From Flavobacteriales bacterium (GTDB lineage: Bacteria > Bacteroidota > Bacteroidia > CAIKAF01), in contig JBEIQI010000003.1 in the NCBI GenBank assembly GCA_040376605.1, positions 1 to 38,126 on the forward strand: a stretch of 38,126 nt of DNA, read 5' to 3'. The position numbers and the translations under genes were made by a program. A model generated the notes under the pieces. It was not told the DNA's origin and made no database searches. It saw nothing but the letters and a program-made list of their open reading frames with translations. Shown here piece by piece: positions 1,781-37,293 of the stretch. Position 1 is the stretch's first letter, and each line of letters opens with the position of its first letter.

Positions 1781-1921
1781 GGAGGATTAAACTCAAAAAA
1801 GTGATGCAAGTATAAAACTAAATTTATATATTAACTAATTAAAGACCTATTTAGGGGTTATACCTACCATACAAACTAGTATTTGTCTTATAAATCAGTT
1901 TCAAAGTCCCTATATAATGCA

Positions 1922-1929
1922 TACCTTTG
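1922..1929 (+). promoter_or_regulatory. Bacteroidota sigma70 -7 element (TACCTTTG)
   Basis: Exact TAnnTTTG match upstream of the desaturase. Confidence 0.55.
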
Positions 1930-1956
1930 CGCCAATCATAATTGAAGAACTGCTTT

Positions 1957-16117: not shown

Positions 16118-16384
16118 AATCGCTAAATTTGATGTGTCCCGCAAAAGTTTGAAAAAAAGTATCTGACGTTAGGTTGTTCAACCGATCTTGATTAAGAACC
16201 AATCGTATCAGAAGGCTAGTGTATTTGTCATACGAAACAGAAACCCGATATCTTTTCTCAATAATATAAAGATGTCTTAAAGGTATATTAGAAAATAAAT
16301 TACACGTTTGGTAAAACTCATCAACTTTCGTAAATTTATCTTTTATCTTTCGTTTAAAAAAATTCATGATTTGTTACGTTAGCA

Positions 16385-17416
16385 ATGCAAGTTGAAATAA
16401 GAAATAAATACTATAATTGGCAACCTGTTCCATCTTCAGTTATTAAAGATAAGCAAATGTCCGAAAATATTCATATTCGCGGATATGAGGTAATCAAAGG
16501 CCTTACGAATGAACAGGTTGATCAACTCAAAGAACTTTTTGACAAAGAGCATCAGTTGGAAATTAAAGATGGAGGTATGTTTTATAGCCTCTATTCCAAA
16601 GACTATGAATATAGAAAAAGGGTTCATGATGAAATTCACGAAATACTGTCACCTTTGTTAGAACAACTATTTACCAATTATAAAAACGTAATTAATTCAT
16701 TTGTTGTAAAGGCACCAGGGCCCAAAAGTGAATTTTATGTCCATCAGGATACTACGGCAATGGATGAGTTTAAGGCTTCTCCATTAAGCTTATGGATACC
16801 CTTACATGATATAACTACTGATAATGGAGCCATGTGCTTGATTGAAAAAACCCATTGGTTCTTTTCGCCTTATCGGGGCGTATCATTTAATTTCCCATTT
16901 ATCAAAATCAACAATACCATTAAAGATTATCTTCAACCCATTCCTTTAAAAAAGGGTGAGATTCTTGTTTTTGATCCACGGCTTATTCATAATTCTCTTG
17001 CCAATCAAACCCAGCAACATCGCATTGCCATTGTATGTGGAATATTTCCTAAAGAGGCAAGGTTTAACACTTGTTTTAAAGATCCCAACATCGAAAATGC
17101 TCCCATTGAAATTTACGAGCATGAGGATGATTATTTATTGAAGTACCCCAATTTCTTTTATAATTGTCATGAACGACCTGTAAGTGGGCATAAAACCAGA
17201 GAGGTGGCAGTTAACGAAAAAGAAATGGATTCAGAAACTTTTATTGAACTCTGTAAGGTAAATCATATCGAAAAGCAAGCATTTATTCAAAAATATTCCG
17301 AAGAAAAATGTCAGATGATTGCCGAACCGGACGGTATCAATAAATTCCCTGAGACCCACTCCGATAATGCACCTGCCGCCAAAAAGAGTTTCCTTGCGAA
17401 GCTATTCAGCAGGTAG
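16385..17416 (+). CDS. PhyH-family Fe(II)/2-oxoglutarate dioxygenase
   Basis: HQD...WIPLHD...NGAM...IHNS..N...RIA; C-terminal tail KKSFLAKLFSR. Confidence 0.88.
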   Translation: MQVEIRNKYYNWQPVPSSVIKDKQMSENIHIRGYEVIKGLTNEQVDQLKELFDKEHQLEIKDGGMFYSLYSKDYEYRKRVHDEIHEILSPLLEQLFTNYKNVINSFVVKAPGPKSEFYVHQDTTAMDEFKASPLSLWIPLHDITTDNGAMCLIEKTHWFFSPYRGVSFNFPFIKINNTIKDYLQPIPLKKGEILVFDPRLIHNSLANQTQQHRIAIVCGIFPKEARFNTCFKDPNIENAPIEIYEHEDDYLLKYPNFFYNCHERPVSGHKTREVAVNEKEMDSETFIELCKVNHIEKQAFIQKYSEEKCQMIAEPDGINKFPETHSDNAPAAKKSFLAKLFSR

Positions 17417-18514
17417 CTTTAAGGTTTCCAGGATCAGTTGATTGAGGTAGCCGGCAAACTTTTTATGACCCTTATTGTTAAAATGATTGGCAATAGTTTT
17501 GCCATCATAATCCTTTTTATCCATCATAGTTGGATAAGTCCATGGAATCTCATTAAAACAATAATCATATGTAGATACAAGGTCCGTTTTTTTTCGGATG
17601 TCAACCGGAGATGGAATACCAACGATGAGCAATTGAATGGCGTTTTGTGTACAATAGTTTTCAATAAACTTTAAATGTTTATAGGTAAATGGTGGTTTTG
17701 GGGGAGGCTCATATAAGTTTTTTCTATTTCTAAAAGTCTTCATTTTATATTCAATGCCCAGGTATAATTTTGAAAACAAAATGGAGTTTCCCATAAATTT
17801 TAAGAAGCCATTTCGTTCTTTCCCGCGTAATGTGTACCAGCTCTGATAAAAGGCAATGGCCGAATTAAAATCCTTGAGCACATAGTTGGGTGGGGCGATC
17901 CTATAGGGTGGTTCTGAATTTAGCCAAGGGCCATGAATGGGTATATAACAAAGGGGTATAAAAGGCTTTGGGGTTCTATCGTAGGTTAATATGTCATTGC
18001 CAAAATAGAAGTGAATTACGATGAGATCAGGCTTTATTTCGGGTGCAAAATGTTCAACAATTAATTTGTATTGCACAGGATCTGCACCGGCTATGCCGTA
18101 GTTTAAAAATGCATATTGTTTTTTATTGCTTAAATAGCCTGCAAATGAATTTGCCATGCTATCACTGCAACAACCATCGAGATATGAATCACCTATGGCC
18201 ATTACGATTTTTTTTCCAGTGGTTCTTCGAATATCATTAATTGTTGCTGAGTCATAGTCAAAAGTTCCAATAAATCCTTGTGAATTAATCTTTGAATCAG
18301 GTTTATAATGACCATCATCTACATAGTGTGATATACCAAATTGGTCACCAAATAAAATAGAATCGTTTACAATTTTTTTAGGCATATATGCCCAGTTAAT
18401 AAGAATTTTGGGCTTATAACCAGCTATTCTAAGGCCTAATTCTGCCAATAAAAACAAGCCGATAAAAACAGCCAACCGAATGAGCCAAATTTTTATCCTG
18501 CTTTCCTTTTTCAT
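17402..18514 (-). CDS. Membrane-anchored SGNH/GDSL hydrolase-like protein
   Basis: N-terminal TM ending ELGLR, INSQGF, GDSY, NYGIAG, GND, HFNNKGH. Confidence 0.75.
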   Translation of the reverse strand: MKKESRIKIWLIRLAVFIGLFLLAELGLRIAGYKPKILINWAYMPKKIVNDSILFGDQFGISHYVDDGHYKPDSKINSQGFIGTFDYDSATINDIRRTTGKKIVMAIGDSYLDGCCSDSMANSFAGYLSNKKQYAFLNYGIAGADPVQYKLIVEHFAPEIKPDLIVIHFYFGNDILTYDRTPKPFIPLCYIPIHGPWLNSEPPYRIAPPNYVLKDFNSAIAFYQSWYTLRGKERNGFLKFMGNSILFSKLYLGIEYKMKTFRNRKNLYEPPPKPPFTYKHLKFIENYCTQNAIQLLIVGIPSPVDIRKKTDLVSTYDYCFNEIPWTYPTMMDKKDYDGKTIANHFNNKGHKKFAGYLNQLILETLKLPAE

Positions 18515-18670
18515 TACTTTGATTCCTAATTAATTACTAAGATAAGGATTTATTGCTTTTATTCGCGGAGTTATTCTACATCACTTTAAGAGTAATTGAC
18601 TTATCAAATTACTAGGTTCGGCTCAATTAAAGATTATGCCCTTCTAACAATTCATTTAAGAAGTTACAAA

Positions 18671-20293
18671 CTACAACTTCATATATTCTGTATACCAAAC
18701 CTCAAAATCCAACCATCTTTTACTAATAGGATCATTCTCGTTAGATAATATTTTACTCAAATTTCTTTTCTTATAAAACTTACGATCCCAAACCATTTTA
18801 TTATTCAAACAACGTTGATATGCTTTGGCGTGTACATTTGGTATTTGTAATTTAGGTTCAACCCCTGTATTTAAAACAGGCAAAATAGAGTCAGCTCTTT
18901 TTGTAAGCGGCGAATTAGAGCCGATTTCCAAAAATTCCTGAGGTGCATTTTTCATTATTTCGTTGTAAAACCTGTAATCCCATAAAAACTCAATAGGAAT
19001 CGACAACACTTGTTGAATTATGCGACTATCCCAAAATGGCGAATTCCCATGACTGACCAACTGGAAGGGTTGAAGCCAATGACCTCTTGTACCTCCGTAT
19101 ATGGTTGTAAAAAAGGGCTGTGTAAATTGACGCATACAAAACAAAAGTTCAGGTTCCAGGTTTTGCAAATAACTTTGCCAAGGGTCAATATTTACGGATT
19201 TTCTAAATCTACTTGAGAACAAAGACTTGTATCTGTCTTTAATTTCCTTTTCAACAAGATTGGGATGAATAGGGGCCGCTTTTAAGCCAAAGCCTCCAAA
19301 AAATTCTCCTCCATGCCACCCGCCATACACTTGATGAAACCTTAATATTCTCCAATTCGAAAAATAAGCAGTCCCAAATTCATTTTCATAGTATGAAATT
19401 TTTTCACTAACATGAGTAAGATTGAACTTCTTTGCAAGCAATTTAGCTCCCACCACATCTTGATCATCCTCTTCGGATAAATGAGATAAGTTACTTGTAT
19501 AAAAGCGAACTCCGGCTCTTTGTTCTTGAGTTAAGCTGGCAAGTATCAAACGGGAATCAGCTCCAGCTGATAAAAGAGTCATTTGAATTTTTTGGGAATT
19601 GAATATTTGTTGATTTACATTTTTAAATAAAATCCACGTTTCGCGTGCTAATTCCTCAATACTCAGATTACTTTTTTCTAGTACCGGTTTCCAATAAGAA
19701 ATATATAAGGTCTTTTGTGAATCTATTTGCACAGTGCAAGCAGGAGCAAGGTTTTGAATATTTTTTAAGAACGTTTTACCAGCTAAAGTGGTTCCCAGGG
19801 TAAAGTATTCGGCAACCCCAACCGCATCTATTAACTTCCCTTTTGGCATATGACTAAGTGGCTCATATTCATTGGAAAAAATGAAGTAGTCTTCATTCTC
19901 ATAAATAAATAAAGGAGACATGCCAAATTTATCATGTGCTAAACGTAAAACATGCTGATGTGAATCATAGTGTATCAAAGAAAATGCTCCATCACTTTGA
20001 GACAAAAAGGATTCAAAATTGGAAAGGTGTTTTTCAGAAATTTGAATAAGTTGATCTATTACCAATGATTCCTGAACGTCAGCATGCTGAATCCAGCCAG
20101 CAAGAAATGATGCGCTGTTCGGCCCTTCCATTAAGGAGGTCCTGAATTTTTCTACTACATATAATTGAAATCCCGGGTACTGAATTAGATGAATCTGTCG
20201 CGTACCATTCTGATGGAAATCATTTATAACCTCTTGCACAGCATGGTCTTCAACATTTCCTTTCTTACTGAATATGCCCAAATAAAATGCCAT
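18671..20293 (-). CDS. Asparagine synthetase B-like ATP-dependent amide ligase (no N-terminal Cys)
   Basis: DGAFS, HDKFGMSPLF, SAGADSR (PP-loop), GWHGGE, SPFWD, FEVWY. Start placed at ATG 20293 (MAFYLGIF). Confidence 0.8.
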   Translation of the reverse strand: MAFYLGIFSKKGNVEDHAVQEVINDFHQNGTRQIHLIQYPGFQLYVVEKFRTSLMEGPNSASFLAGWIQHADVQESLVIDQLIQISEKHLSNFESFLSQSDGAFSLIHYDSHQHVLRLAHDKFGMSPLFIYENEDYFIFSNEYEPLSHMPKGKLIDAVGVAEYFTLGTTLAGKTFLKNIQNLAPACTVQIDSQKTLYISYWKPVLEKSNLSIEELARETWILFKNVNQQIFNSQKIQMTLLSAGADSRLILASLTQEQRAGVRFYTSNLSHLSEEDDQDVVGAKLLAKKFNLTHVSEKISYYENEFGTAYFSNWRILRFHQVYGGWHGGEFFGGFGLKAAPIHPNLVEKEIKDRYKSLFSSRFRKSVNIDPWQSYLQNLEPELLFCMRQFTQPFFTTIYGGTRGHWLQPFQLVSHGNSPFWDSRIIQQVLSIPIEFLWDYRFYNEIMKNAPQEFLEIGSNSPLTKRADSILPVLNTGVEPKLQIPNVHAKAYQRCLNNKMVWDRKFYKKRNLSKILSNENDPISKRWLDFEVWYTEYMKL

Positions 20294-20345
20294 AATACAA
20301 TAGTAGCCAAATGAAGTATAAATTCCCAAATAACAGAACATTAAG

Positions 20346-20377
20346 TTTGATTCGTATCCAATAATTAAATAAATTTG
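20346..20377 (+). promoter_or_regulatory. Complete Bacteroidota sigma70 promoter (-33 TTTG, -7 TAAATTTG)
   Basis: TTTG at 20346-20349, 20-nt spacer, TAAATTTG at 20370-20377; the ATG at 20382 follows after 4 nt. Confidence 0.65.
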
Positions 20378-20381
20378 AAGT

Positions 20382-21248
20382 ATGCTATTTAAAGACCCGC
20401 AAAAACAGCAAGAATTAGAAAAGAATGGATATGTTGTTGTTCCTCTATTAAGCCGATCAGCCATTGAATCGCTTAATAAGTTTTACAACGAAATACATCC
20501 TGAAGGCTCTCCTCCTGATATTATAGATGGAATCCATATGAGCACTTGGTGCAAGAATTCAGCCTATAAAAATCAAGTTTCTGAATTTTTGAGTAACCTT
20601 TTTGCCGAACCAACTGAACAATACTTTACTAATTATAGAAGACTCAACAACGTTTTTATTGTTAAAAAAAGTGGTAAGGATACCACATTCAAGGTCCACC
20701 AGGATTGGAATGTAGTAGATGAGACCAAATTTGAAAGTGTAAATGTTTGGGTACCCCTGCATGATGTGGATGAAAACTCCGGAGCATTATGGGTATTAAA
20801 AGGAAGTCATAAAATCAATCGTAAAATTAGAGGTGCCGGTTATTTATTTCCCGATTATAGTCCGTTTTTTAATGAGTTAGAAAAAAAATCCATTTCGGTA
20901 AAGTTGAAGGCCGGAGAAGCCATCGTTTTTTACCACTCCATTATTCATGGATCACCCCCTAATTTGGCTGATACGGATAGAAAAGCGGCATGTTTTAGTG
21001 TAATACCACAAAATGCTCCTCTTTGCATTTATTTTCAACCTTCGGCTAATGATGATTTAGAACAATATGAGCCAACAGATGATTTTATTTATCAATATGA
21101 TTATTTGAGAACCGAATCCACCCAAAGGCCACCAGCCGAGACACCAGTAAAAACCCTACCGTCCTATATTAATGAGAAAGTGAGTTTAAAGGAGCTGACA
21201 GAATTTTTGAATAAGTCGAAAGGGATTTTTTCTTTTTTACATAAATAG
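20382..21248 (+). CDS. PhyH-family Fe(II)/2-oxoglutarate dioxygenase
   Basis: HQDWNVVDE, WVPLHD, IHGSPPN...RKA; tail KGIFSFLHK. Confidence 0.88.
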   Translation: MLFKDPQKQQELEKNGYVVVPLLSRSAIESLNKFYNEIHPEGSPPDIIDGIHMSTWCKNSAYKNQVSEFLSNLFAEPTEQYFTNYRRLNNVFIVKKSGKDTTFKVHQDWNVVDETKFESVNVWVPLHDVDENSGALWVLKGSHKINRKIRGAGYLFPDYSPFFNELEKKSISVKLKAGEAIVFYHSIIHGSPPNLADTDRKAACFSVIPQNAPLCIYFQPSANDDLEQYEPTDDFIYQYDYLRTESTQRPPAETPVKTLPSYINEKVSLKELTEFLNKSKGIFSFLHK

Positions 21249-21300
21249 ATATCATACATTTTTGATATCATTTATAAGCCGGCACAATAATTACAGATTA

Positions 21301-21955
21301 CTAGGACCAATAATAAAACCTCTTTTTATCTAAAGAGATTCCCATAAATCCACCAAATGAAATTCTTGGATTTTTTCGCATAACCGTTTCAATTTTATGC
21401 CAAATATTACCTCCTTGAAAAATTATAATGTCACCCTTTCTCGGCCTAATTTTATCCTTAATAATATTGGGGTTGTCATTAACATACATTTTAGATCCGT
21501 CCGGCAGTATGATTTCATTACCTTCTGAAGGATTTACCATTTAAGTCCACTCCAAATTCCTGTTCAAATGTATCATGAAAGATTAAGTTGCTTTCAAAAT
21601 AAGCTTTAATCAGGGGGCAGCCCTCTGTTCACCAGAGTTTTCTTTAATTCCCCTCGAAAATTCTGCTAAAACAGCCGAATAAGTGAGACCTACAGATGTA
21701 TGGGCTGGATTGTAATTAATTACCTTGCTAATATTGGACATGATTGCATCGACCTCTGCTTCTGTTAAAACTGTTTCACCAAATAACCATCAGATACATT
21801 GGTTTACCAATTATATAATTCGTCCTTTTTTCCCACCAATTCCTTTAGCAATAGCTTTAAAATTATATGGTTCAGTTGTAAATTCTTGTCGATATTCATT
21901 ATCCTTAGGTATTTGGTTAAATCCAAATATTCCTTTTAATATTTTACTTAACTTT
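21301..21955 (-). pseudogene. Decayed 2OG-Fe(II) oxygenase gene
   Basis: Minus-strand fragments in shifting frames: KLSKILKGIFGF..., DGYLVKQF / LTEAEVDAIMSNI, AYFESNLIFHDTFEQEFGVDL, then an intact C-terminus GDIIIFQGGNIWHKIETV...PRISFGGF; internal stops and frameshifts; upstream boundary approximate. Confidence 0.65.
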
Positions 21956-21979
21956 TATAATATTAAATAAATCTACCGA

Positions 21980-23191
21980 TTAATTTTTTAATCTTTTGAT
22001 TTCCCATTCCAATCTCGGTGAGACAACAGTACTCATTTGATTAAAATAACCTTCATTACCAGTTTCTTGGGAAGAAGGGAGAATTTTAAAAGAAGTCATA
22101 TTATCCATTTGATCAACCAGTTCAAAAGACTTACTTATAATAAGTGAAAGATGATAAATACCTCTGGGAAGAAAATTGGCAGGGATCACACAACCCACCA
22201 AATACCTACCGGGCTGCGTGATTTTATCAAAGTCATAATTACTTCGTAGTGCAAATGAATCAAGAAAAATCCTAATACCATCCAAATTTGAAAGATAGAT
22301 TGCCAGCTCTAACGTACCGACTTCGGAAATTTTTTCAAAATCGAAAACTATTTCTATGGCTTCATCAACAAATAAAGGCCAAGAAGACTTTTCTCCAAGT
22401 GAAGAAATAGTTACTCCTTTCAAAAAAATAAAATCCAGAATGTTGCGATCAATTATTACCCTATCCTGCATTAAGTGTTCCCCTGCCAAATTTGATCCCC
22501 TTTGAGAAAATCCTTCGATATATTGTTCTATAACTACTATTGGTGGTCCTTCCATTCGTAGCAATCCATTATCAATCCAAATTGCCTTTGTGCAAAGCTC
22601 CAAAACCTGCGACATATTATGACTTACTAATACAATAGTTAATCCACTATTGGCCATAAATCGAAGCCTTGACATACATTTTTCCTTAAATTCATTATCC
22701 CCAACAGCAACTACCTCGTCTAATAAAAGGATTTGTGTATTGATGTGAACAGCAATCGAAAATGCCAATCTCAAATACATTCCGTTTGAGTAATTTCTTA
22801 CCGGCTCATGAATAAAACTTTCTATACCGCTAAAATGAATAATATCATTTATTTTTTCGTTCACCTCAATTTTAGACATTCCAAAAAGCGAGGCATTTAA
22901 AAAAATATTATCATACCCCGAAAGATCGGGATGAAATCCAGTTCCAATATCTAAAATCGAAACAACCACCCCATCAAACTTAACAGAACCTGAGCTTGGA
23001 GCGATTACATCACTTAAAATTTTTAACAAGGTACTTTTGCCGGCTCCATTTTTACCAACAATACCCAATATCTCACCACGCCTTAACTCAAAAGAAACAT
23101 CCTTTAAAGCCCAAAATGGTTCTTTTGAACCATTTAAAGAATATTTCTTTGAAATATTCTTTACTACTAATACCGGGTTTTGGTTGTCCAT
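21980..23191 (-). CDS. wzt: Polysaccharide ABC exporter ATP-binding subunit with a C-terminal carbohydrate-binding-type domain
   Basis: FWALKDVSF, Walker A GKNGAGKST, YSNGM, LLLDEVVAVGD, VSH; ~170 aa C-terminal extension. Confidence 0.92.
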   Translation of the reverse strand: MDNQNPVLVVKNISKKYSLNGSKEPFWALKDVSFELRRGEILGIVGKNGAGKSTLLKILSDVIAPSSGSVKFDGVVVSILDIGTGFHPDLSGYDNIFLNASLFGMSKIEVNEKINDIIHFSGIESFIHEPVRNYSNGMYLRLAFSIAVHINTQILLLDEVVAVGDNEFKEKCMSRLRFMANSGLTIVLVSHNMSQVLELCTKAIWIDNGLLRMEGPPIVVIEQYIEGFSQRGSNLAGEHLMQDRVIIDRNILDFIFLKGVTISSLGEKSSWPLFVDEAIEIVFDFEKISEVGTLELAIYLSNLDGIRIFLDSFALRSNYDFDKITQPGRYLVGCVIPANFLPRGIYHLSLIISKSFELVDQMDNMTSFKILPSSQETGNEGYFNQMSTVVSPRLEWEIKRLKN

Positions 23192-23198
23192 TCTCTAC

Positions 23199-24158
23199 TT
23201 ATAAATCACTTTCTTTCCATTTCTCCACCTGCATTAAATATAAATTCTGTAAGAAATATCTACTGTTCCCCGAAAAGATATCCATTGCTGGTTTAATAAG
23301 TTTCAATTCAAAAAAGTCAACCGGAAAAACATAATCTCTTAGATTCTCAATTTTATTAATGCCGGTTAACTCCTGAAATTCGTTCGATATTGTTAGGTTT
23401 TCAAATTCCTCCAAAGGAATATCAATCGTTTTTAAGGATGATAAAATATACCCTTTTTTCCGAACATGGTCGAGAATTGTATTCAAATCAGCAACATTGT
23501 ACCTGTACGCATTATTGATATTGTTGATCTCCACTTCAATGCCCTTTTCCATTCCCTTGTGCAATGCCTTCTTCCTAAACAAGTCCTTAATATAAATTAC
23601 GCCTCCTGGTTTTAAAACGTTCCAGGTGGAATCCAATACCTGAATATGGTTGGTTGCGTGCCCAAAAGATTCTAAAAAATAGATGGCATCAAAATGATTT
23701 TCAGGAAAATACTTTTCCAGGGTATGAAAATCTCCCTCTTGTACATTAATTAACATTGAGGCATTACTATCTTTGATATTATCCTTCGCCTTCTGCACCT
23801 GCACAGATGAAATGGTAAGTGCTTCTACTTGAACACCCACCTTTTCGGCAAAGTGAATTGCAGGCCCACAAACACCACAACCCGCATCCAACACAACCAT
23901 ACCCTTATCCAAACCAATAGCCTGTATTTGGTAATCGAGCAGAACAGAAACATCCGTTGTTCGAAATGCCTGAATTACCTTACCATAAACCTTTAAGAAA
24001 TTATCGGTTTGTTCATTATAAAATCTACCCACATCGCTTTGGTAGGATTTTACTGTATTGGATTTCGAAGATTCTTTTTTTAGCTTATAATAATACGCGA
24101 TTATGCTAAACAATAGCAATAGATTAACCGTAATTGACAATATTAAAAAAGCCCTCAT
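23199..24158 (-). CDS. Membrane-anchored class I SAM-dependent methyltransferase
   Basis: N-terminal TM helix; VLDAGCG, EGDFH, FDAIYFLESFGH, LKPGG (sterol/tocopherol/CFA methyltransferase-like pattern). Confidence 0.85.
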   Translation of the reverse strand: MRAFLILSITVNLLLLFSIIAYYYKLKKESSKSNTVKSYQSDVGRFYNEQTDNFLKVYGKVIQAFRTTDVSVLLDYQIQAIGLDKGMVVLDAGCGVCGPAIHFAEKVGVQVEALTISSVQVQKAKDNIKDSNASMLINVQEGDFHTLEKYFPENHFDAIYFLESFGHATNHIQVLDSTWNVLKPGGVIYIKDLFRKKALHKGMEKGIEVEINNINNAYRYNVADLNTILDHVRKKGYILSSLKTIDIPLEEFENLTISNEFQELTGINKIENLRDYVFPVDFFELKLIKPAMDIFSGNSRYFLQNLYLMQVEKWKESDL

Positions 24159-24218
24159 TTTTTATTTTCTATCAAATTCAATGGAGATATTTTTAAAAAA
24201 CATACTAAATAATCATTT

Positions 24219-24776
24219 TTATTTCTCTGTTAAGTTATAATTAATTTTGCAACCTATAGGTTCCGTTTCTTTAATATCTGGCCTCCTATTATTCAAAACT
24301 GCTATTATCGCATTTTCCAAATACTTTTCTGTTACAACATTCCTGTGCTTGCCTAAAGAATAATAATAATTATCAAACGCACCACTATAGACAACATTTT
24401 TAGCAGAATCTGTCAAAATGAATTGCGGTGTAGCTTTGACACTAAAATTCCTTGCCATCATCAAATCGGTATCATATATTACAGGAAGGTCAAAGTCATA
24501 ATCTTCCAGAGTTTTTTTTAAATACAATGTATCCGGAAAAGGATCAGAATAAACTGCTGTAACCGTTAATCCTTTAACTGCATATTCTTTACTCAATTCG
24601 CTGACCTTTTGAAAACTTGCTTTACAAGCGGGGCAATCAGGGATGAAAAAAAAATAACAACTCATCGCCTGAGCTTTCAAAGTATCTATGCTCCCACCTT
24701 TTGATACTTCCTTTGTCCTGTTACAAGAACTGAAAGAAATATTCAAAATTATTAATACCAAAATCCAGATTCTCAT
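24219..24776 (-). CDS. Redoxin (AhpC/TSA, thioredoxin-fold) lipoprotein
   Basis: Lipobox-like ISFSSC, CPAC, ATPQ, YSGAFDN, PIGC. Confidence 0.82.
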   Translation of the reverse strand: MRIWILVLIILNISFSSCNRTKEVSKGGSIDTLKAQAMSCYFFFIPDCPACKASFQKVSELSKEYAVKGLTVTAVYSDPFPDTLYLKKTLEDYDFDLPVIYDTDLMMARNFSVKATPQFILTDSAKNVVYSGAFDNYYYSLGKHRNVVTEKYLENAIIAVLNNRRPDIKETEPIGCKINYNLTEK

Positions 24777-24782
24777 GATGTA

Positions 24783-26201
24783 TTATTTCCGCAAAATTTC
24801 TGTAGGCTCAACCTGTTCATCACCCTTCCTATAAGCCGTAAACATTAAACTTAGCACCATCATTTCCTGATTGGAATAAGTGTCGTATTTTACATCTTGA
24901 ACCGGATTATTGGGTTGTACTGGATTATTTGCCGTATTATCGTAAACAGCGTTCATATAAATTGTAGACCCCCCAGGAATTACCGTTAATTTCCTTAACA
25001 GATAACTCCCCTGCCATAAATAATCCCAATCATTTATCTTTAGAATATTAATTTTTTTCAATTCCTTAGTGATCGCAAAAATTTCTATTTTTTTGGCCAA
25101 AAAATGCAAATGAGGAACACATCCAATCAATGAAATTGTAGAATCCGTATAAAAAGAAATTGTTTCCACCTTGATGGTATTTGCTGGAAAAAAAATCTCC
25201 AGATTGTTTAAAATTTCCCATTTAATTTCACGTTCTGGCCTTTTACTAAAAAAAACCTGCAAGCTTGTACGTTCTCTTTGCCCTTTGTTGCCTTCATCTC
25301 CGTAATGTGTTTGCAACAGCAGCTTAGATCCCTTTGGATAACGAAAGGCAAAGCCTTTGGTTAGTTGAGTTGGTACCATTCCTCTTGACCATGGTTCAAT
25401 AGGTATTAACTTATTAACTATTTCATCTTTCATACAATTCCAACACCCAGGTAATGAATTCAAAATCCCAAGTGTATCCATATATACCATTATATGATGA
25501 ATTGTACTTGGGTTCGATGAGTGAAATCTTATGGAATTAACAAATGTGTCAATCGGCAAATCAAGATCAACTACAAAACATTGGTAAGAGTCATCGTTTG
25601 AGTTTATAGTGTGCTCTTCAGTATAATAAGTTCGGCTGCCTCTTAAATTTTTTGTGGGCAAGAATTGTTGAATCCTGCTATCCTTCGAAAATTTGGGTGG
25701 CAAGGCACCCTGATCAATCCATTTCACAATAACCCATCTTAATGAATCATTAATCCTTGGAGCATTCATTAGTTCCGAATATGTGTCATCCGCCATCCAA
25801 GGTGGCATAACTCTCTCCATAAGAACATCTTTAATAACCGCAGATCTCTTAAGTATAGCCTCATAAGAATTTAAAACAAAAGGACCATTCCCATTTTCAC
25901 TATGACATGGTGTGCAATTATCAACGAATAGTGGGAAAACGTCAGAAAAATCCACAGGGCCATTTTCCCAGTTAGTATCAATTAATTTTCCTCGAGGATC
26001 AGCTAATCCATGATAATATTCCAATAATAATGCATTCTTGGCACTATCATTGTTAAATGTTGAAAAATCCCGAGTATTCTGTATATCCACATCTTTCTTA
26101 GATCCCAAATTACATGAGTACATTGCATAAAACACAATAAGCAAAGCGTAAAATCTAAAATAGATCCTAGTTATTTGAATCCTAGTACTTTCTTGAACCA
26201 T
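24783..26201 (-). CDS. Heme-c + copper type II monooxygenase (PHM/DBH-like) protein, probable lipoprotein
   Basis: CTPCH heme-binding motif, MPPW, HH (TIHHIM), QTHY, PHLH, WDYLWQ, YDNT..NP, EMM; start uncertain. Confidence 0.78.
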   Translation of the reverse strand: MVQESTRIQITRIYFRFYALLIVFYAMYSCNLGSKKDVDIQNTRDFSTFNNDSAKNALLLEYYHGLADPRGKLIDTNWENGPVDFSDVFPLFVDNCTPCHSENGNGPFVLNSYEAILKRSAVIKDVLMERVMPPWMADDTYSELMNAPRINDSLRWVIVKWIDQGALPPKFSKDSRIQQFLPTKNLRGSRTYYTEEHTINSNDDSYQCFVVDLDLPIDTFVNSIRFHSSNPSTIHHIMVYMDTLGILNSLPGCWNCMKDEIVNKLIPIEPWSRGMVPTQLTKGFAFRYPKGSKLLLQTHYGDEGNKGQRERTSLQVFFSKRPEREIKWEILNNLEIFFPANTIKVETISFYTDSTISLIGCVPHLHFLAKKIEIFAITKELKKINILKINDWDYLWQGSYLLRKLTVIPGGSTIYMNAVYDNTANNPVQPNNPVQDVKYDTYSNQEMMVLSLMFTAYRKGDEQVEPTEILRK

Positions 26202-27046
26202 TGTATTTTATTAGGTTGGCCATTTGTCAAAAATATAGAATTATACTGTTGGATGGTCAGATACTCTAATCTATCTTCCACCTTCGCAATCATTTCAAGT
26301 CCCTCCGGACCATTATTTGGATCCTTATCTAAAAAGAAATCTTCAGTTACCTTATAGGAGTTGATCTCCCCATCTTGACCATAATAAAGTTGCATGTTTT
26401 GGTTTTGGGGTATTATTCCACAAACAATTCCCAATCTCATTTTGTTGGTGTTGTTATTGGGAGATGCATGCACAAGGGCATGATCATACAAAAGGGCTTC
26501 GCCGGCCTTCATTGGCAAAGCTTCCAGGCTAGTCCAAACATGGGGTTCAATGTTTTTAAATAATGATGGAATTCCAGGACCACGATGGGTAAATATTTTA
26601 TTGTGACTTCCTGGTAAAACATAAACGGCACCATTCTCTACGGTTACATCAATCAATGGTATCCATAGATTGTAAGAACGGGTTATTCTTTCATCTACAA
26701 TATTCCAATCTTGATGTGGAGGCAGAAGTCCTTTGCCATTAGAGGGTTTTACAACAAAGGCACCACCTAGTAAATCATATCCACAAAAAAATTGTTCCAT
26801 TCTTTCGGCAACAGTTTTTTTAATGAAATTACTGGTCTCCCTCCTAAATGAATGATCAGGGGAATGAGTAGAAGAATAAAAATGATTGGGTTCCTCTTTT
26901 TGAACGTTCGTATAATAGGAGATGAGTTTTTCAAGATCATCCTTATTCAAAAATGGAAAAATAGTATAACCTCTCACGGCCAATTCTTCCGCAGCATTAA
27001 CATCTTTCGATATTTTACTTGCTTCAAATACTATCCTCTGATCCAT
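26171..27046 (-). CDS. PhyH-family Fe(II)/2-oxoglutarate dioxygenase
   Basis: HQDWNIVDE, WIPLID, VHASPNN...RLG; tail WFKKVLGFK. Confidence 0.88.
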   Translation of the reverse strand: MDQRIVFEASKISKDVNAAEELAVRGYTIFPFLNKDDLEKLISYYTNVQKEEPNHFYSSTHSPDHSFRRETSNFIKKTVAERMEQFFCGYDLLGGAFVVKPSNGKGLLPPHQDWNIVDERITRSYNLWIPLIDVTVENGAVYVLPGSHNKIFTHRGPGIPSLFKNIEPHVWTSLEALPMKAGEALLYDHALVHASPNNNTNKMRLGIVCGIIPQNQNMQLYYGQDGEINSYKVTEDFFLDKDPNNGPEGLEMIAKVEDRLEYLTIQQYNSIFLTNGQPNKIQWFKKVLGFK

Positions 27047-27936
27047 CCCATTATTTTTTTAGTGAGGCCTTGTTTAGGTATCAATTCCACGGATTTTGAT
27101 TCAACGCCGCTTTTAATTAACTCTTCGTTAGAAATACGAGGTAATTGAAATGGAACCACTCCCAAACTTCTTCCGATGGTAGGTCGTTGAAAAATAGATT
27201 GATGAAAATTCTCAAATTTGATTAAAAAATCGTCTTCTTGAGCAAACAACTCTATTTTATCGGGAGCTTCCTTGTCCCAATAATGGAATACCATAGGTGC
27301 CTCTTTTGATTTAATACCGGTGGTAATGGCGATTCGCATTTCATCGGTTCTATTTGGTTTAGAATAATGAATAATGGCCTGATTCAAAACAATGGCTTCA
27401 CCTGCTTTTGCAACAATCGGCATCAGCAATTTTTTTAATGACTCCTGATGTCCTTCATAATAAAAGGGTAAGGTGGGAGCTCTTAGAGATTGATGCCATG
27501 CATGACTTCCTTTTATCACTTCAATGGTTCCATTCATCTCATCAGTGTCTTGTAAAGGAGTCCAGATATTTACAGCCACATACTTTTTTTCATCTACGAT
27601 GGTCCAATCCTGATGCATGGGCATCTCGCTTCTAGGCCCGTTTCCTTTAGAAAGAAATGCAGATCCAAACCAAGTATAATGATTAAATATTTTTTCCAAA
27701 TTAGGTACAATGACTTGTCCAATTGCATCACTCATCCTCTTTTTAGCTGGAAAGTCATTTTCATAACTGGAAGAATAGAAATCCTGTGAAGGATTCGGAT
27801 AAAATTGTGCAAATAATGACCTAAGAGAATTAATATCCTCCTCCGAAATCAATGAAATCTTCACAAAACCATCTTCATCAAAACGTTTTTGTAAGAGTGG
27901 ATCATTAAAAATTGGAAGTATTTTTTCTACTATCAT
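27031..27936 (-). CDS. PhyH-family Fe(II)/2-oxoglutarate dioxygenase
   Basis: HQDWTIVDE, WTPLQD, IHYSKPN...RIA; tail GLTKKIMGWIRG. Confidence 0.88.
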   Translation of the reverse strand: MIVEKILPIFNDPLLQKRFDEDGFVKISLISEEDINSLRSLFAQFYPNPSQDFYSSSYENDFPAKKRMSDAIGQVIVPNLEKIFNHYTWFGSAFLSKGNGPRSEMPMHQDWTIVDEKKYVAVNIWTPLQDTDEMNGTIEVIKGSHAWHQSLRAPTLPFYYEGHQESLKKLLMPIVAKAGEAIVLNQAIIHYSKPNRTDEMRIAITTGIKSKEAPMVFHYWDKEAPDKIELFAQEDDFLIKFENFHQSIFQRPTIGRSLGVVPFQLPRISNEELIKSGVESKSVELIPKQGLTKKIMGWIRG

Positions 27937-28853
27937 GATCCTTTCTTATTTAAAAACAACCTTTCCCAAAAACCTTTTTTTACGCCTTTTTCTTCAACAG
28001 GCTGTTTTGGAACATAATTATATTCTTTGATCAAAAGTTCTGTATCAATCTTCGGGAAATCATAAGGTACATAACCTAAGGATTTTCCAATTGAAGGCCG
28101 ACTAAAAATATCATTCCCGAAATTCTGAAAATTCACCATAAAATCCTCGTCCTGATCGAACATTTCTATTTCTCCCCGTCGTTGTTTATCCCAATAGCAA
28201 ATTTTTATGGTTGCTTCCTTATGAGTTACAAAGGTATTTACAACTGGCCTCACTTCTTGGGATAGATTTGGAGGTGAATAATGAATTATGCTTTGATCGA
28301 AGACAATCGCCTGCCCAGCCTTTAAATAGCATGGCTGCATCAATGATTTTACCTCATTTACCATACCATCATAAATATCAGGTAAAGAAGAGCCACGATA
28401 TGTTCTAAAAAGTCGATGACTCCTTGGTAAAACTTCTATCGCTCCATTTTTTGAATCCAAATCAACTAAAGGAATCCAAATATTCGTGCCAGTATATTTC
28501 GTTTCATCCACCAATGTCATATCCTGATGAAGAATCAATTCGCTTTTTTCACCTGGTGCCTTGGCAATATAACTCCCACAATAGACCTTATAATCGGTAA
28601 AGAAATGTTCCAATCCGCGTCTCATCGTTAATTGGATCTCATCATCTACCTTTTTCCTGTAATCCGTATCTATTGCAAAAGTACTGGTATAAAATCCTGT
28701 AACCCCTTGTGGATGTAAATCATCAAAAAGTTGTTTAAGGTATTTTACTTCATCCATGTTTAAAAAGTCCAGTATAACATACCCTTCTGTATTGAACATA
28801 TTTTGAAGTTCAGGGTTGCTAAATATTCGTGCTTTGTTGTCGAAATTAATCAT
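27933..28853 (-). CDS. PhyH-family Fe(II)/2-oxoglutarate dioxygenase
   Basis: HQDMTLVDE, WIPLVD, IHYSPPN...RPV; tail KKGFWERLFLNKKGS. Confidence 0.88.
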   Translation of the reverse strand: MINFDNKARIFSNPELQNMFNTEGYVILDFLNMDEVKYLKQLFDDLHPQGVTGFYTSTFAIDTDYRKKVDDEIQLTMRRGLEHFFTDYKVYCGSYIAKAPGEKSELILHQDMTLVDETKYTGTNIWIPLVDLDSKNGAIEVLPRSHRLFRTYRGSSLPDIYDGMVNEVKSLMQPCYLKAGQAIVFDQSIIHYSPPNLSQEVRPVVNTFVTHKEATIKICYWDKQRRGEIEMFDQDEDFMVNFQNFGNDIFSRPSIGKSLGYVPYDFPKIDTELLIKEYNYVPKQPVEEKGVKKGFWERLFLNKKGS

Positions 28854-28857
28854 GTTC

Positions 28858-30747
28858 TTACTTCTTCGTTAATCGATGTTTAATTTCAGCAATGATATTT
28901 GTTGGGGTATAGATTTGAAAAAACCCTCTTTTAGAAGTCTCGTTGGTAATTAAAGGCTCTTCATTCAAACTGACATTTTGCTTGGGTTTCCCGTCCATAT
29001 TATAATGATACATTCCCGCCAATTCTTCCATCAATTCATTATTAAACTTTACGCCCGGGGTAGTACATATTAGTTGAGTAATCTCTTCTTTTGAAAACTC
29101 CTGTGCAATTTTTTTAAACGATTCGATTGCCTTCAGTTCATTCGGTTTAGTATTTGCATTATAATATTCCGACATTCTAGAATTATTATACAAGGGGAAA
29201 AATGCCGGTTCTACTTCGTACACTTCAATCCTTTCTTCATTACCAGGTAATTGATAATAATGTCTTAAACGAGCTTCCTTTTGCGTAATTCCAATTCCTG
29301 CAGCTATTCTTGATTTTCCAGAAATATTTGGAGGAGATGCATGAATGGTTTTATTATTAAAAATCAAAGCCTCACCAGCCTTCATGTCTATAACTTCTAC
29401 ATAAGGAAACAAATTAAATACATGATCTGATAATAATGACTTAGCTTGTGGAGAAGGAGAGGCCCTTGGGAAATTAAACAATTTATGACTCCCCCTAATA
29501 ATACCCAAAGCCCCATTGTTTTTATTTACGTCCATTAATGGAATCCAAACGGTGCCTGAGCAAAACTCCGTTTCGTCAACAAAACTCCAATCCTGATGTG
29601 GAGGTACGATATTTTCAAGCCCAGCCTCCTTTATTACGTAACTAGCAGTAAATGCCTGATAGTTCAACAAAAATGGACTTAACTTGGGTATAATGGTATC
29701 AAATAAAATTTTAAAAACACCATTTCTATAATCTGCACTTTTATTTTCCAGACTAATATGAAAACCATAATCTTTCACATGGTCATGGTTTAAAGATAAA
29801 TAATACTTCTTTAAAGTATTCACTTCATCATCATTCAATAAGGATAGCATAACAAATCCATCCCGATCAAATTTCTCCTGAATCGTTGAATCGCTGAACA
29901 AAGGTTGAGGTGTGAATTCGAGTGATCTTTGATGATTAATTTCATCCATTCGTTGAATAAATTCATCGGATTTTATTCGGTCACTTTTTTGCTGAATCAC
30001 CTCTAGAAGTTCTGCTTCCAAAGGTGCTTCTCCCTCATTAGAAAACGTAATAAAGAAGTCATCTTTAACCCTAAATTTTTGAAAAGTGTCCTTTTCCTTT
30101 TGATGATAAAAAATGAGATCAGCATCCTTGTGAACTAATCCAAAAGCCACCGCAATACGGGGCTTATCCGATTCATTTTTATTGGATCCATGAATGATCG
30201 ATTGATCAAATATAAAGGCCTCTCCCGCCTTCATATACAAGGTATGGGCAAGTTTATCTAGGGTGTCCTGAATATCCTTTAGATGATCAAAATTGCCTGG
30301 TCCTCTTTTGTATCTGGAAAATTCATGGCTTGAAGGAACCACCTTAATTGCTCCATTCGTTTCATTCGTTTCATTCAAACTAACCCAAACCGTTATACTT
30401 CGAAATTGATCCTCATCCACTACCGTCCAATCCTGATGAAAAGGCATGTGGCCTCCCTGGCCTTGATTCTTAACTAAAAACTGAGCCCCAAGCGTCTTAT
30501 AGTCAGAAAAATGTTGTTGTATAATGGGATCCAGAATTGAAATCAGACTATCATTAAGCCGTTTTTTTTTCTCTATATCCTTAACAAAAGTGCTTGAATA
30601 AAAATTTTCAGACCCCTCTGGAAAACTTTGATGATAAAGGTTATTCAACTTTACCACCGTTAATTCATCTAAAAGCTTTTTACGTAAAAAGCCATATTGC
30701 GTAAACCTTTCTGCATCCGAATGATATTTAAAAACATTATTCATCAT
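28858..30747 (-). CDS. Tandem two-domain PhyH-family dioxygenase
   Basis: Two complete motif sets: HQDWTVVDE...IHGSNKN...RIA and HQDWSFVDE...IHASPPN...RIA; 629 aa. Confidence 0.88.
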   Translation of the reverse strand: MMNNVFKYHSDAERFTQYGFLRKKLLDELTVVKLNNLYHQSFPEGSENFYSSTFVKDIEKKKRLNDSLISILDPIIQQHFSDYKTLGAQFLVKNQGQGGHMPFHQDWTVVDEDQFRSITVWVSLNETNETNGAIKVVPSSHEFSRYKRGPGNFDHLKDIQDTLDKLAHTLYMKAGEAFIFDQSIIHGSNKNESDKPRIAVAFGLVHKDADLIFYHQKEKDTFQKFRVKDDFFITFSNEGEAPLEAELLEVIQQKSDRIKSDEFIQRMDEINHQRSLEFTPQPLFSDSTIQEKFDRDGFVMLSLLNDDEVNTLKKYYLSLNHDHVKDYGFHISLENKSADYRNGVFKILFDTIIPKLSPFLLNYQAFTASYVIKEAGLENIVPPHQDWSFVDETEFCSGTVWIPLMDVNKNNGALGIIRGSHKLFNFPRASPSPQAKSLLSDHVFNLFPYVEVIDMKAGEALIFNNKTIHASPPNISGKSRIAAGIGITQKEARLRHYYQLPGNEERIEVYEVEPAFFPLYNNSRMSEYYNANTKPNELKAIESFKKIAQEFSKEEITQLICTTPGVKFNNELMEELAGMYHYNMDGKPKQNVSLNEEPLITNETSKRGFFQIYTPTNIIAEIKHRLTKK

Positions 30748-31664
30748 AATCCTTTCAATAAACCCATGGCCTTGTTTAATAATCCTGGAGTTTGATCAAA
30801 TCTTTTTCCCTTTAACCCTTTTAAAAATTCTTCATAGGTAAATGGATGATCTTTAAATTTGAGCACCTTCAATTCTCGTTTCCCATGAGGTTGTAACCAC
30901 GGATGAAACTCCATATAAAAACTCTGATCCGTTTCGAAAACATGCACTTTGTTTTTGTCTACTGTTCTGTCCAAATGATAATGAACCGGATGAGTGCATT
31001 TCGGGATTAGAATTAATTGAATGGTTAACCGTAATCCTGAGGTTTGGTTAATATTGCTATAATGAACAATGCTGTCATCTAAGATAACTCCCGTCCCGGC
31101 CTTCACATTCATCGGTGTCAGGTGCTTATTAATAATCTCTTGTTTAATCCCTTCTAATTCCCATGGGATAAGTGGCCCCCGCAGTCTGCCAAATTTCTTA
31201 TGACTTCCATCCACCATTTGTAAGGTGCCATTCTCTTCATTACTATCTACCAATGGGACCCAAATTGAAACTGATGTAAATTTATCCTCTTCTACGAATG
31301 CCCAATTTTGATGCAATGGAACTTCCCCTCCTCCCTCTTTCTTGCGGATATAATTGGCAATGATGGGTGTATAGTCGTTTAAATATTCATCAACTCGTTT
31401 TTGAAAGGCCTTGGTGATTATGTTAAATACCTTTTTCTTATACTCTGGATTTCGATCAATAAATGTAAAATCGTAGGTGATTTCACTTTCTGTTTTAAAA
31501 TCGGTATCGTTACTCGTTTTGGATCCACCGCTTTCCGGTAAAGTTTCAAAAAACATCTGTTTCAAATATTCGACCTCCGATGCATCCAAGAAGGGAACCT
31601 GAACGTAACCTTTCCTGTCAAACTCTTCCTGTAAGGATTTATAACGCAAAACAACGTTGGGCAT
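30744..31664 (-). CDS. PhyH-family dioxygenase with variant HQN iron motif
   Basis: HQNWAFVEE, WVPLVD, VHYSNIN...RLT; tail GLLNKAMGLLKGL. Confidence 0.85.
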   Translation of the reverse strand: MPNVVLRYKSLQEEFDRKGYVQVPFLDASEVEYLKQMFFETLPESGGSKTSNDTDFKTESEITYDFTFIDRNPEYKKKVFNIITKAFQKRVDEYLNDYTPIIANYIRKKEGGGEVPLHQNWAFVEEDKFTSVSIWVPLVDSNEENGTLQMVDGSHKKFGRLRGPLIPWELEGIKQEIINKHLTPMNVKAGTGVILDDSIVHYSNINQTSGLRLTIQLILIPKCTHPVHYHLDRTVDKNKVHVFETDQSFYMEFHPWLQPHGKRELKVLKFKDHPFTYEEFLKGLKGKRFDQTPGLLNKAMGLLKGL

Positions 31665-36978: not shown

Positions 36979-37217
36979 TATTGACTGACTTTATTTTGGG
37001 TTATTTGATATAATTCGAGTAGCGTTTGTGAATTTCTAAAATCTTCATCGGTAAAACTAACCCCCCATTCATCATGTATTGCCACTGTTACAATTAGTGC
37101 TTGTAAAGACGACCAACCAGGTATTTGTTTAAATGCTGAGTTCATTGAAATAGATTTTCTGACGGCTTCTTCAAATTGCAGCTGCACTATTTCCAGAAAT
37201 CTTTGTTTATCAACCAT
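36978..37217 (-). CDS. Acyl carrier protein
   Basis: 79 aa from ATG 37217; WSSL phosphopantetheine-site motif; stop overlaps the fabH start. Confidence 0.75.
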   Translation of the reverse strand: MVDKQRFLEIVQLQFEEAVRKSISMNSAFKQIPGWSSLQALIVTVAIHDEWGVSFTDEDFRNSQTLLELYQITQNKVSQ

Positions 37218-37293
37218 TATGGTAAAATATAAATTAAAGATAATTAATTTAAGGTCAATCTCATATGTTGTCAATACTGATGCCTGATCTGCA

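Follow-up and report, generated by a model that had tools for sequence, protein, structure and literature searches.

In the ABC-dependent O-antigen systems, such as that of E. coli O9a with its WbdD cap and the WzmWzt exporter of Aquifex, a Wzm permease is paired with a Wzt ATPase that carries a C-terminal extension, and a methyltransferase gene adjoins wzt. A methyltransferase encoded next to wzt is responsible for chain capping in O8 and O9a; the cap in these systems is a methyl, methyl-phosphate or Kdo group, and we know of none with oxygenases encoded between wzm and wzt. Fe(II)/2-oxoglutarate (Fe/2OG) enzymes that act on a lipid-linked envelope glycoconjugate at the inner membrane are represented by LpxO and KdoO, which tailor lipopolysaccharide (LPS). 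Here we describe a 38,126-nucleotide contig (JBEIQI010000003.1; hereafter the window), with 31 open reading frames (ORFs), from the metagenome-assembled genome (MAG) of a Flavobacteriales bacterium (GCA_040376605.1; 3.17 Mb, 379 contigs, 91% complete). It encodes eight phytanoyl-CoA dioxygenase (PhyH) domains together with a Wzm/Wzt-type exporter and a methyltransferase. These Fe/2OG enzymes differ from LpxO and KdoO, which belong to other Pfam families and of which each pathway has a single enzyme, with no batteries of paralogues.

Among the closest described oxygenases, PHYHD1 and the bacterial FJS are reported to catalyse the 2OG-dependent demethylation of 2'-O-methyl ribose in free nucleosides (PMC12709175). 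They are comparable to the window enzymes in oxidising a methyl group on a sugar hydroxyl, a methyltransferase being the constant neighbour of the array here. They are, however, single-copy catabolic enzymes of free nucleosides with no array and no export link, and the match is to the core only (profile positions 87-208). EvdO2, AviO1, HygX, EvdMO1, SnoK and SnoN also have a PhyH-type fold, and several of these paralogous oxygenases work on one oligosaccharide-type substrate. Orthosomycin-type enzymes form orthoester and methylenedioxy bridges on oligosaccharides, and carbocyclisation and epimerisation also occur in the group. These are soluble actinomycete antibiotic enzymes, one to three in each case, with no Wzm/Wzt, whereas the system described here comprises six to eight or more clades in a Bacteroidota envelope-glycan export locus, and its members end in amphipathic C-terminal tails. 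We consider it somewhat more likely than not that the PhyH domains constitute a membrane-surface battery of sub-functionalised oxygenases which tailors a lipid-linked glycan before its export by Wzm-Wzt.

A PhyH array between wzm and wzt

The initial annotation of the window listed seven genes with eight PhyH domains, and both the ORFs and their scores against PF05721 (gathering cut-off 22 bits) bear this out. PhyA (16385..17416; 68.7 bits) and PhyB (20382..21248; 73.6 bits) are located on the plus strand. The remaining genes form an array on the minus strand, namely PhyC (26171..27046; 75 bits), PhyD (27031..27936; 67.3 bits), PhyE (27933..28853; 58.8 bits), the 629 amino acid, two-domain PhyF (28858..30747; 139.2 bits in two stretches) and PhyG (30744..31664; 70 bits), so that two paralogs do lie outside the array on the opposite strand, as had been noted. 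The domains are named A to E, F1 (approximately 29908-30747), F2 (28858-29907) and G, and each gives its letter to an orthogroup. Taken singly they score 58.8-77.4 bits. A six-frame scan of the whole genome returned eight PF05721 matches, every one inside the window, while 14 control genomes returned none. Pairwise identity among the eight domains is 21.5-39.6%, in agreement with the earlier view that they are not recent identical copies, and their alignment contains 19 invariant columns.

The motifs initially read from the translations largely hold. H-Q-(D/N)-x4-(D/E)-E is found in all eight domains, with His-Gln-Asn replacing His-x-Asp in G, the distal H-x-S-x-x-N and an Arg are invariant across the window domains, and HQD is followed by T in A, by M in E and by W in all other domains; W-x-P-L-x-D is generally present, but F1 reads WVSLNE. 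Three more narrowly defined families do not describe these proteins. The best score against TIGR01762 (SyrB2/CytC3-type halogenases) is 46.8 bits, against a cut-off of 226.3, and the carboxylate position is occupied by Asp (Asn in G) rather than Ala/Gly. The best score against TIGR04324 (sporadic carbohydrate cluster 2OG-Fe(II) oxygenase) is 48.7 bits, with the others at 21-37 and the cut-off at 150, while for the ectoine hydroxylase EctD (TIGR02408; cut-off 336.5) PhyF reaches 37.6 bits and the other proteins give no match.

Relatives of protein F are encoded at 450 loci (one genome per species scanned), the best 80 of which (L008-L087) were used as the set of related loci. Many of these are short contigs, and 37 are at least 20 kb long. 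ORFs were called with our own script (first ATG, GTG or TTG, nested ORFs removed), and PhyH domains were cut with a hidden Markov model (HMM) of A1, a profile built from the eight window PhyH domains. Nearly all of the loci are from Bacteroidota MAGs (Flavobacteriales, Crocinitomicaceae, Chitinophagales, Saprospiraceae, Sediminibacterium and Pelobium), while two are labelled Gammaproteobacteria. The core order in the related loci is Wzm-G-F1~F2-E-D-C-methyltransferase-Wzt, where the tilde denotes fusion, with A and B nearby, and the stretch from G through F1~F2, E and D to C is arranged in this way in MAGs of the Flavobacteriales, Chitinophagales, Saprospiraceae and Sediminibacterium. In 47 of the 80 loci (25 of the 37 long ones), clades C, D, E, F2 and G occur jointly; Wzm is present in 59/80 (30/37 long ones), Wzt in 35/80 and the methyltransferase in 32/80. 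The presence of F2 follows from the use of F to find the loci. The full set of eight clades in one locus is uncommon, occurring in 3/80 related loci and in the related genome G027, and the window, like G027, stands at the rich end of the range.

In the window, Wzm (31678..32496, minus strand; ABC-2 permease, PF01061, 63.1 bits) is located directly upstream of the array. Wzt (21980..23191, minus strand; PF00005, 76.2 bits) is an ABC ATPase of 403 amino acids with a C-terminal extension, and residues 24-369 align with a full-length solved ABC-transporter chain of 404 residues (8dku_A/7k2t_A; phmmer E 1.9e-60). We take the latter, named just 'ABC transporter' in the database, to be WzmWzt, the O-antigen exporter of Aquifex that bears a carbohydrate-binding domain. 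Matches of Wzt to solved Wzt/TagH-type chains have E-values of 1.9e-60 to 5.9e-42, and the combination of ABC-2 permease and Wzt/TagH-type ATPase that characterizes Wzm/Wzt glycan export is present, as judged from the Pfam and solved-chain matches. NCBIfam equivalog cut-offs are not reached by the exporter genes, Wzm falling below that of NF050109. An S-adenosylmethionine-dependent methyltransferase with a hydrophobic N-terminus (23199..24158, minus strand; Methyltransf_11/25/31 and CMAS matches) adjoins Wzt, as in the O-antigen systems.

Orthology and selection

In total, 494 domains were cut from the loci, and 483 were left once L003 and L004, duplicates of L041 and L008, were dropped. In a FastTree phylogeny of these domains, every window domain falls in its own clade without other window domains, with support of 80-100: clade A comprises 36 domains from 33 loci (support 95), B 20 from 17 (90), C 63 from 55 (97), D 74 from 66 (91), E 69 from 68 (89), F1 52 from 51 (98), F2 93 from 80 (80) and G 69 from 68 (100). 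Among the 80 related loci, the clades are represented in 16-79 each. Seven domains fall outside the eight clades, and only a few loci contain more than one copy of a clade. A second phylogeny, constructed with IQ-TREE under the LG+C20 PMSF mixture model from 86 domains of ten loci and the window, recovers G (100), E (100), A (93) and F1 (91) as single clades, while F2, D, C and B each show one extra change, which stems from long-branch extra copies. The clade labels require 10 changes on this tree, where the minimum is 8 and shuffled labels average 60.5. D and E are sister clades (SH-aLRT 97), and this is the only resolved deep branching, the remaining joins having support of 5-85. Within-clade identity is 38-58%, compared with a between-clade mean of 27% (clade-pair means 23-33%). 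Stable orthologous subgroups, which the initial annotation had proposed to look for, can therefore be recognized across several families and orders.

The term expansion used at the outset does not apply in the sense of a lineage-specific event, since all eight lineages are old and common to other genomes. Nine window genes were compared with their counterparts at L008, a locus from the same genus; synonymous divergence (pS) is 0.73-0.86, and as synonymous sites are saturated at this level, a dN/dS ratio is not properly estimable. For PhyG, F, D and C, pS is 0.75-0.80 and non-synonymous divergence (pN) 0.16-0.31, values comparable to those of Wzm, GT2 and FabH and indicative of purifying selection. 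A recent, redundant and strain-specific amplification under relaxed selection, the outcome that the initial annotation had named as refuting its reading, has nothing in its favour apart from the clustering as such and is refuted by the 21-40% identity among the domains, by orthologues of the window copies which are 36-54% identical in genomes from other families, by the separate clades and by pN far below saturated pS, and we assign it a negligible probability.

Active-site residues

Residues were counted in an HMM alignment of the 476 assigned domains. The first His, the Arg (R201), K97, N195 and W125 show little or no variation in any clade, R201 being invariant in 476/476 and S192 nearly so, and the distal His is kept in all but one B member, where it is Tyr. 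In PhyH and EctD structures, the Arg and the Ser following the distal His hold the C5 carboxylate of 2OG. With both His and the Arg retained, all eight domains look able to bind 2OG and iron. The metal triad His-x-Asp/Glu ... His takes the form H-Q-D ... H in 7/8 window domains and H-Q-N in G, and across the clades the carboxylate position is Asp except in G, where it is Asn in 69/69 members. Clade G is also the most conserved (58% within-clade identity), and it carries a conserved variant of the metal site.

Further clade signatures are unevenly distributed. Met follows HQD in 67/69 members of clade E, while the corresponding residue varies between T, S and P in clade A. A looser test applied per clade identified 23 diagnostic columns for G, seven for E, three for C, two for F2, one for B and none for A, D and F1, while a strict test for columns conserved within all eight clades yet differing between them found two. 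The proposal that the paralogues are sub-functionalised enzymes is thus fitted by the stable clades and by the particular residues beside the metal site in E and G, but judging from the diagnostic columns, clear active-site signatures exist for some clades only.

Fusions and association of paralogues

Neighbouring clades are joined in differing combinations, depending on the genome. F1~F2 fusions occur in 50/80 related loci, G~F2 in 15/80, E~D in 5/80, A~B or B~A in 2/80 and A~C in 1/80, while F2 is unfused in the Crocinitomicaceae/Dokdonia group. The methyltransferase is fused to clade C in five of the 80 loci (L010, L016, L017, L018 and L020). This arrangement is paralleled by EvdMO1, a 471-residue chain named 'Methyltransferase domain-containing protein' in which the oxygenase match is C-terminal. 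An AF2 model of the two-domain PhyF forms one confident unit (pLDDT 88.3, pTM 0.83), and on the basis of this pTM, F1 and F2 are predicted to adopt a defined packing. A complex prediction for PhyE and PhyD (41-row alignment each) scored 0.00 against a mark of 0.32 and was used neither for nor against binding. The fusions and the PhyF model lend indirect support to the alternative raised initially, in which the paralogues would be subunits of a hetero-oligomer; they may associate in pairs or in a larger assembly.

Association between paralogous oxygenases has a precedent in TlxI-J and TlxA-C, which are described as paralogous Fe/2OG oxygenases that form obligate heterodimers, with a fused relative, TalA (PMC11880133). 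These fungal meroterpenoid enzymes share with the present system the side-by-side encoding of paralogous oxygenases of the same fold and the existence of a fused relative. They raise the possibility that only some of the PhyH domains are catalytic and that others, above all G, are non-catalytic partners which shape or stabilise the pocket, as TlxI does for TlxJ. The many alternative fusions would be in keeping with such a role, as would clade G, which is the most conserved clade and has no carboxylate ligand in 69/69 members. However, the partner subunit of the Tlx pair is reported to be devoid of a lid loop and of the Arg that binds 2OG, whereas all eight clades here keep the Arg and H-x-S-x-x-N and nearly all members both His, which argues for cofactor binding in every domain. 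AspH, in which the ligands are two His only, is a further point against such partners. This 2OG hydroxylase is reported to be active and to follow an unusual strategy of catalysis (PMC10915816). We therefore regard non-catalytic partners as an improbable explanation.

C-terminal tails and cellular location

Every clade ends in a short basic amphipathic C-terminal segment. Over the last 20 residues, the charge has a median of +1 in G, +2 in A and B and +3 in C, D, E and F2, compared with +1 in a control set of 681 other C-termini from the same loci, and the best 11-residue hydrophobic moment is 0.48-0.61, compared with 0.46 in the controls. By eye the tails resemble the membrane-targeting helix of MinD. 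No N-terminal signal sequences are visible in the PhyH translations. The tails may thus serve for membrane binding.

A location at the membrane would distinguish these proteins from soluble cytosolic enzymes that modify nucleotide-sugars or other small precursors ahead of polymerisation. The latter role is suggested by the sugar-nucleotide enzymes in the locus and by PHYHD1 and FJS, which are reported to act on free nucleosides (PMC12709175). It is difficult to reconcile with basic amphipathic tails in every clade and with an array placed between wzm and wzt and not with the precursor genes, and six to eight serial oxidations on small precursors would be unusual. As such, we consider modification of soluble precursors quite improbable.

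Nature of the substrate

The solved proteins nearest to the window domains by profile are PHYHD1 (2opw, E 1.6e-14), MysH, PhyH, EvdO2 (E 3.5e-11) and SnoK/SnoN, with SyrB2 and CytC3 further off. The nearest by fold, as determined with Foldseek, are MysH, SnoN/SnoK, EvdMO1, TlxIJ (7vbq), HygX, AviO1 and EvdO2, and the matches to orthosomycin/hygromycin-type enzymes have E-values of approximately 1e-10 and TM-scores to the target of 0.53-0.62. For most of these near relatives, the site of action is a sugar moiety or a group carried by a sugar. The locus also encodes a set of sugar genes: three family 2 glycosyltransferases (GT2), a family 4 glycosyltransferase (GT4), a TarP/RmlT-like GT-A protein, a Ugd-type dehydrogenase, an epimerase, DegT and an asparagine-synthase (AsnB)-like gene.

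These observations are consistent with the following scheme. The eight PhyH domains would be an ancient set of Fe/2OG oxygenases with divided tasks, encoded with the methyltransferase between the wzm and wzt genes of an ABC-dependent glycan pathway. They would most likely be attached to the cytoplasmic face of the inner membrane via their basic amphipathic C-terminal tails and would act as neighbouring pairs or as a larger assembly, each with its own site of oxidation on a lipid-linked glycan, either a sugar C-H or an O-methyl group. The glycan itself would be built by the approximately six glycosyltransferases of the locus and modified along the polymer or only at a chain-terminating cap, with the methyltransferase acting before or after clade C. 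The modified chain would then be recognised by the carbohydrate-binding domain of Wzt and exported by Wzm-Wzt.

A halogenase-like gene and the other partners found in variant loci bear on the choice between sugar and lipid. A decayed WelO5-family (PF22814) Fe/2OG halogenase-like gene was identified between PhyB and Wzt (21304..21924, minus strand) by tblastn with the intact homologue of L013, which scores 258 bits on PF22814. Its last 78 residues are intact (ORF 21301-21540) and share 73% identity with the L013 homologue, while the N-terminal part contains stops and a frame change and approximately 100 central residues, the H-x-G stretch included, are gone; the window copy is broken and gives no full-length WelO5 match with an H-x-G ... 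H site. Intact copies are found at the same place in 17/80 loci, and 15 of the 18 copies have H-x-G, the halogenase type, while three have H-x-E. B12 radical-SAM genes are present in 9/80 loci and SPASM radical-SAM genes in 13/80. In L065, and also in L039, L054 and L064, the PhyH array is accompanied by genes for B12-binding radical-SAM enzymes, as many as six of them, and for a multihaem cytochrome c, and L065 contains in addition three genes of the Asp/Asn beta-hydroxylase family (LpxO-type).

Several observations weigh against the lipid-linked glycan scheme. The WelO5-type, B12/SPASM radical-SAM, LpxO-type, acyl carrier protein (ACP)/FabH and CMAS-like methyltransferase partners suggest aliphatic C-H chemistry on a lipid or peptide. 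No initiating phosphoglycosyltransferase (WecA/WbaP-type) or ligase was found by Pfam among the 31 window ORFs, to which this search was confined, and in some loci (L025-L027) there is no Wzm within 10 kb and the array has unrelated housekeeping genes as neighbours. Furthermore, the amphipathicity of the tails differs only modestly from that of the controls, and clade G, being without the usual carboxylate ligand, may not be a normal hydroxylase.

The aliphatic-type partners, the lack of an initiating transferase in the window and the arrays without Wzm make a lipid chain the main rival substrate. The oxygenases would in that case modify a membrane lipid or glycolipid in its aliphatic portion and not in its sugars, working on an acyl chain derived from ACP/FabH/GNAT or a prenyl chain from UbiA, each paralogue hydroxylating a carbon of its own, while methoxy, chloro and C-methyl groups would be contributed by the methyltransferase, the WelO5-like and the radical-SAM enzymes. 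Unactivated aliphatic C-H bonds are typically the target of Fe/2OG hydroxylases and halogenases, which we count in favour of such a substrate together with the distribution of the WelO5-family, radical-SAM and LpxO-type genes given above. In addition, the methyltransferase matches CMAS and cyclopropane-fatty-acid synthase models, UbiA is present in 15/80 loci, and amphipathic tails would suit a lipid substrate too. On the other hand, the nearest solved relatives are mostly sugar-directed, the ACP/FabH/GNAT genes (21-22/80) and UbiA are far less regular companions than Wzm (59/80), and glycosyltransferases and sugar-nucleotide enzymes dominate the locus. Lipid tailoring is thus unlikely, although it has to be taken seriously.

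A peptide target would also accommodate some of these genes. The variant loci include SPASM and B12 radical-SAM, Asp/Asn beta-hydroxylase-family, GNAT and AsnB-like genes, as might be expected if the array hydroxylated a ribosomally synthesised and post-translationally modified peptide (RiPP) and the ABC-2 transporter were its exporter. However, no candidate for a precursor was found among 495 intergenic small ORFs of the 80 loci and the window; the sole conserved family is an ACP (eight loci, in a 76-aa version), and in the absence of any other conserved small ORF we judge a peptide substrate very improbable.

Within the lipid-linked glycan scheme, a more far-reaching version can be envisaged, which we put forward as speculative and, in its entirety, unlikely. 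Six to eight or more regiospecific Fe/2OG sites in fused or associated pairs would form a membrane-bound assembly line, coupled to the ABC exporter, for the serial C-H and O-methyl oxidation of a lipid-linked sugar chain or cap. The chemistry would be new to the cell envelope, and the His-x-Asn site of clade G would be a new variant of the metal centre with a reactivity of its own. The products might include orthoester or methylenedioxy bridges, and chlorination might be added where the WelO5-like gene is intact.

Other genes of the locus

Upstream of the core, the related loci show the recurring order ACP-like, FabH-like, GT2, GNAT, a 289-aa protein encoded on the other strand, a GT2 in some cases, and Wzm. 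In the window this corresponds to an ACP-like ORF of 98 amino acids (36978-37274, minus strand), a FabH-like KAS III (35968-36978, minus strand), a GT2 (35046-35978, minus strand), a GNAT protein (34405-35049, minus strand), the 289-aa protein (33505-34374, plus strand) and a further GT2 (32477-33448, minus strand), the KAS III, GT2 and GNAT genes being assigned by Pfam. Homologues of FabH, the GT2 at 35046-35978, GNAT and the 289-aa protein are each present in 21-22/80 loci, within 10 kb and in the same order. The ACP-like ORF has a weak PP-binding match (E 0.026) and a conserved Ser in a W-S-S-x-Q-A-L context. The 289-aa protein, the gene for which is always on the strand opposite to its neighbours, has no Pfam match; structure prediction (pLDDT 92.4) gave a model with a GT-A glycosyltransferase fold, and the nearest solved folds are TarP, RmlT, TarS and SpsA. 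TarP, RmlT and TarS are teichoic-acid glycosyltransferases.

A second recurring block consists of Ugd, a 342-aa protein, epimerase, GT4, UbiA and an SGNH-like protein. In the window it comprises the Ugd-type dehydrogenase (10710-12023, plus strand), the epimerase (12025-12984, plus strand), the 342-aa protein (12997-14025, minus strand), the GT4 (14022-15131, minus strand), a UbiA-family prenyltransferase (15128-16144, minus strand) and an SGNH/GDSL-like protein with an N-terminal hydrophobic segment (17402-18514, minus strand). The Ugd, epimerase, GT4 and UbiA genes were assigned by Pfam, as was another GT2 at 8754-10631. The set of five genes from Ugd to UbiA also adjoins PhyA in L012, L013, L014 and L018. 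GT4 and UbiA, which are overlapping separate genes in the window, are fused into a protein of approximately 760 amino acids in L001 (17493-19781) and L007 (2601-4865), and a look-up of the UbiA protein in the Protein Atlas returned only generic 'UbiA prenyltransferase' clusters. DegT is present in 14/80 related loci.

The SGNH/GDSL-like protein and the asparagine-synthase-like amidotransferase (18671-20464, minus strand) recur in related loci, and both score below the curated Pfam/NCBIfam cut-offs. The ORF of the latter overlaps the start of PhyB by 83 bases, and its true start is therefore probably further in; the likely start reads Met-Ala instead of the usual class II Met-Cys, and the glutaminase nucleophile thus seems to be missing. 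PhyC is separated from the methyltransferase by an insert of two genes, one for a TlpA/redoxin-like lipoprotein (24219-24776, minus strand; Redoxin E-value 1.1e-10) and one for a 472-aa protein with a hydrophobic N-terminus, CxxCH and His-rich stretches (24783-26201, minus strand; faint Cu2_monooxygen and cytochrome c matches, E 0.04). Homologues of this insert were found in L011 alone among the 80 loci, and it is outside the conserved core.

The left end of the window (155-2895) has a gene of the fatty-acid-desaturase family, which recurs only in L044, and one for an FAD oxidoreductase of phytoene-desaturase/amine-oxidase type; the two may serve carotenoid synthesis and have no relation to the module. 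The locus is flanked by genes for proteins with type IX secretion system (T9SS) C-terminal sorting domains (4068-6620 and 37294-38118, both minus strand), with similar flanks in L001, L005, L025, L041 and L061. Sorting tails of this kind place the contig in the Bacteroidota. As the phylum is rich in such genes, this flanking may be due to chance.

Distribution and significance

An A1 search of 40 relatives of the source genome identified arrays in three, namely G002 of the same genus (five matches), G027 (nine) and G037 (13), while a fourth has a single weak match. In an even sample of the phylum, 6/400 other genomes match A1 at E <= 1e-30, with only five candidates per genome scored; G205, G161 and G118 are complete or nearly complete genomes that contain arrays. 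Against 1.84 billion cluster representatives, A1 matches 10,837 proteins with the limit set at E <= 0.001 and 2,171 with a limit of E <= 1e-30, and proteins of two or three domains are numerous among these. The homologues of protein F number at least 552; among the 120 listed, identity is 35-100%, all but two span 92-100% of the query, and the names are generic, such as 'phytanoyl-CoA dioxygenase family'. DNA nearly identical to window positions 26171-31664 (0.71-0.74 of sampled words) was found in 20 sequencing runs from 18 studies. Their labels read lake water, freshwater or drinking water metagenome, apart from a single run given just as 'metagenome', and no RNA run is among them.

A description of the module was not found in full-text literature searches, whose coverage excludes most subscription journals and supplements. 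The nearest match was a preprint on a Xanthomonas LPS locus which is listed as mentioning one phytanoyl-CoA dioxygenase together with wzm. While the enzyme family and the kind of export system are already known, the novelty resides in the conserved multi-clade battery inserted between wzm and wzt, with its fusions and tails, and in the His-x-Asn clade.

The window contains one copy of a widespread module that probably serves for the multi-position oxidation of a membrane-anchored sugar chain before export. If this is correct, many uncultured freshwater, soil and marine Bacteroidota would make an envelope glycoconjugate that needs up to eight or more oxygen-dependent steps, and to our knowledge no such envelope polymer has been described. 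The enzymes would represent a natural set of related regiospecific catalysts for C-H oxidation of carbohydrates, useful in biocatalysis, and a second and much larger case of cooperating paralogous 2OG oxygenases after TlxI-J. Given the presence of the locus DNA in lake, freshwater and drinking-water metagenomes, the product may matter for the way in which common lake bacteria interact with phages, grazers or surfaces.

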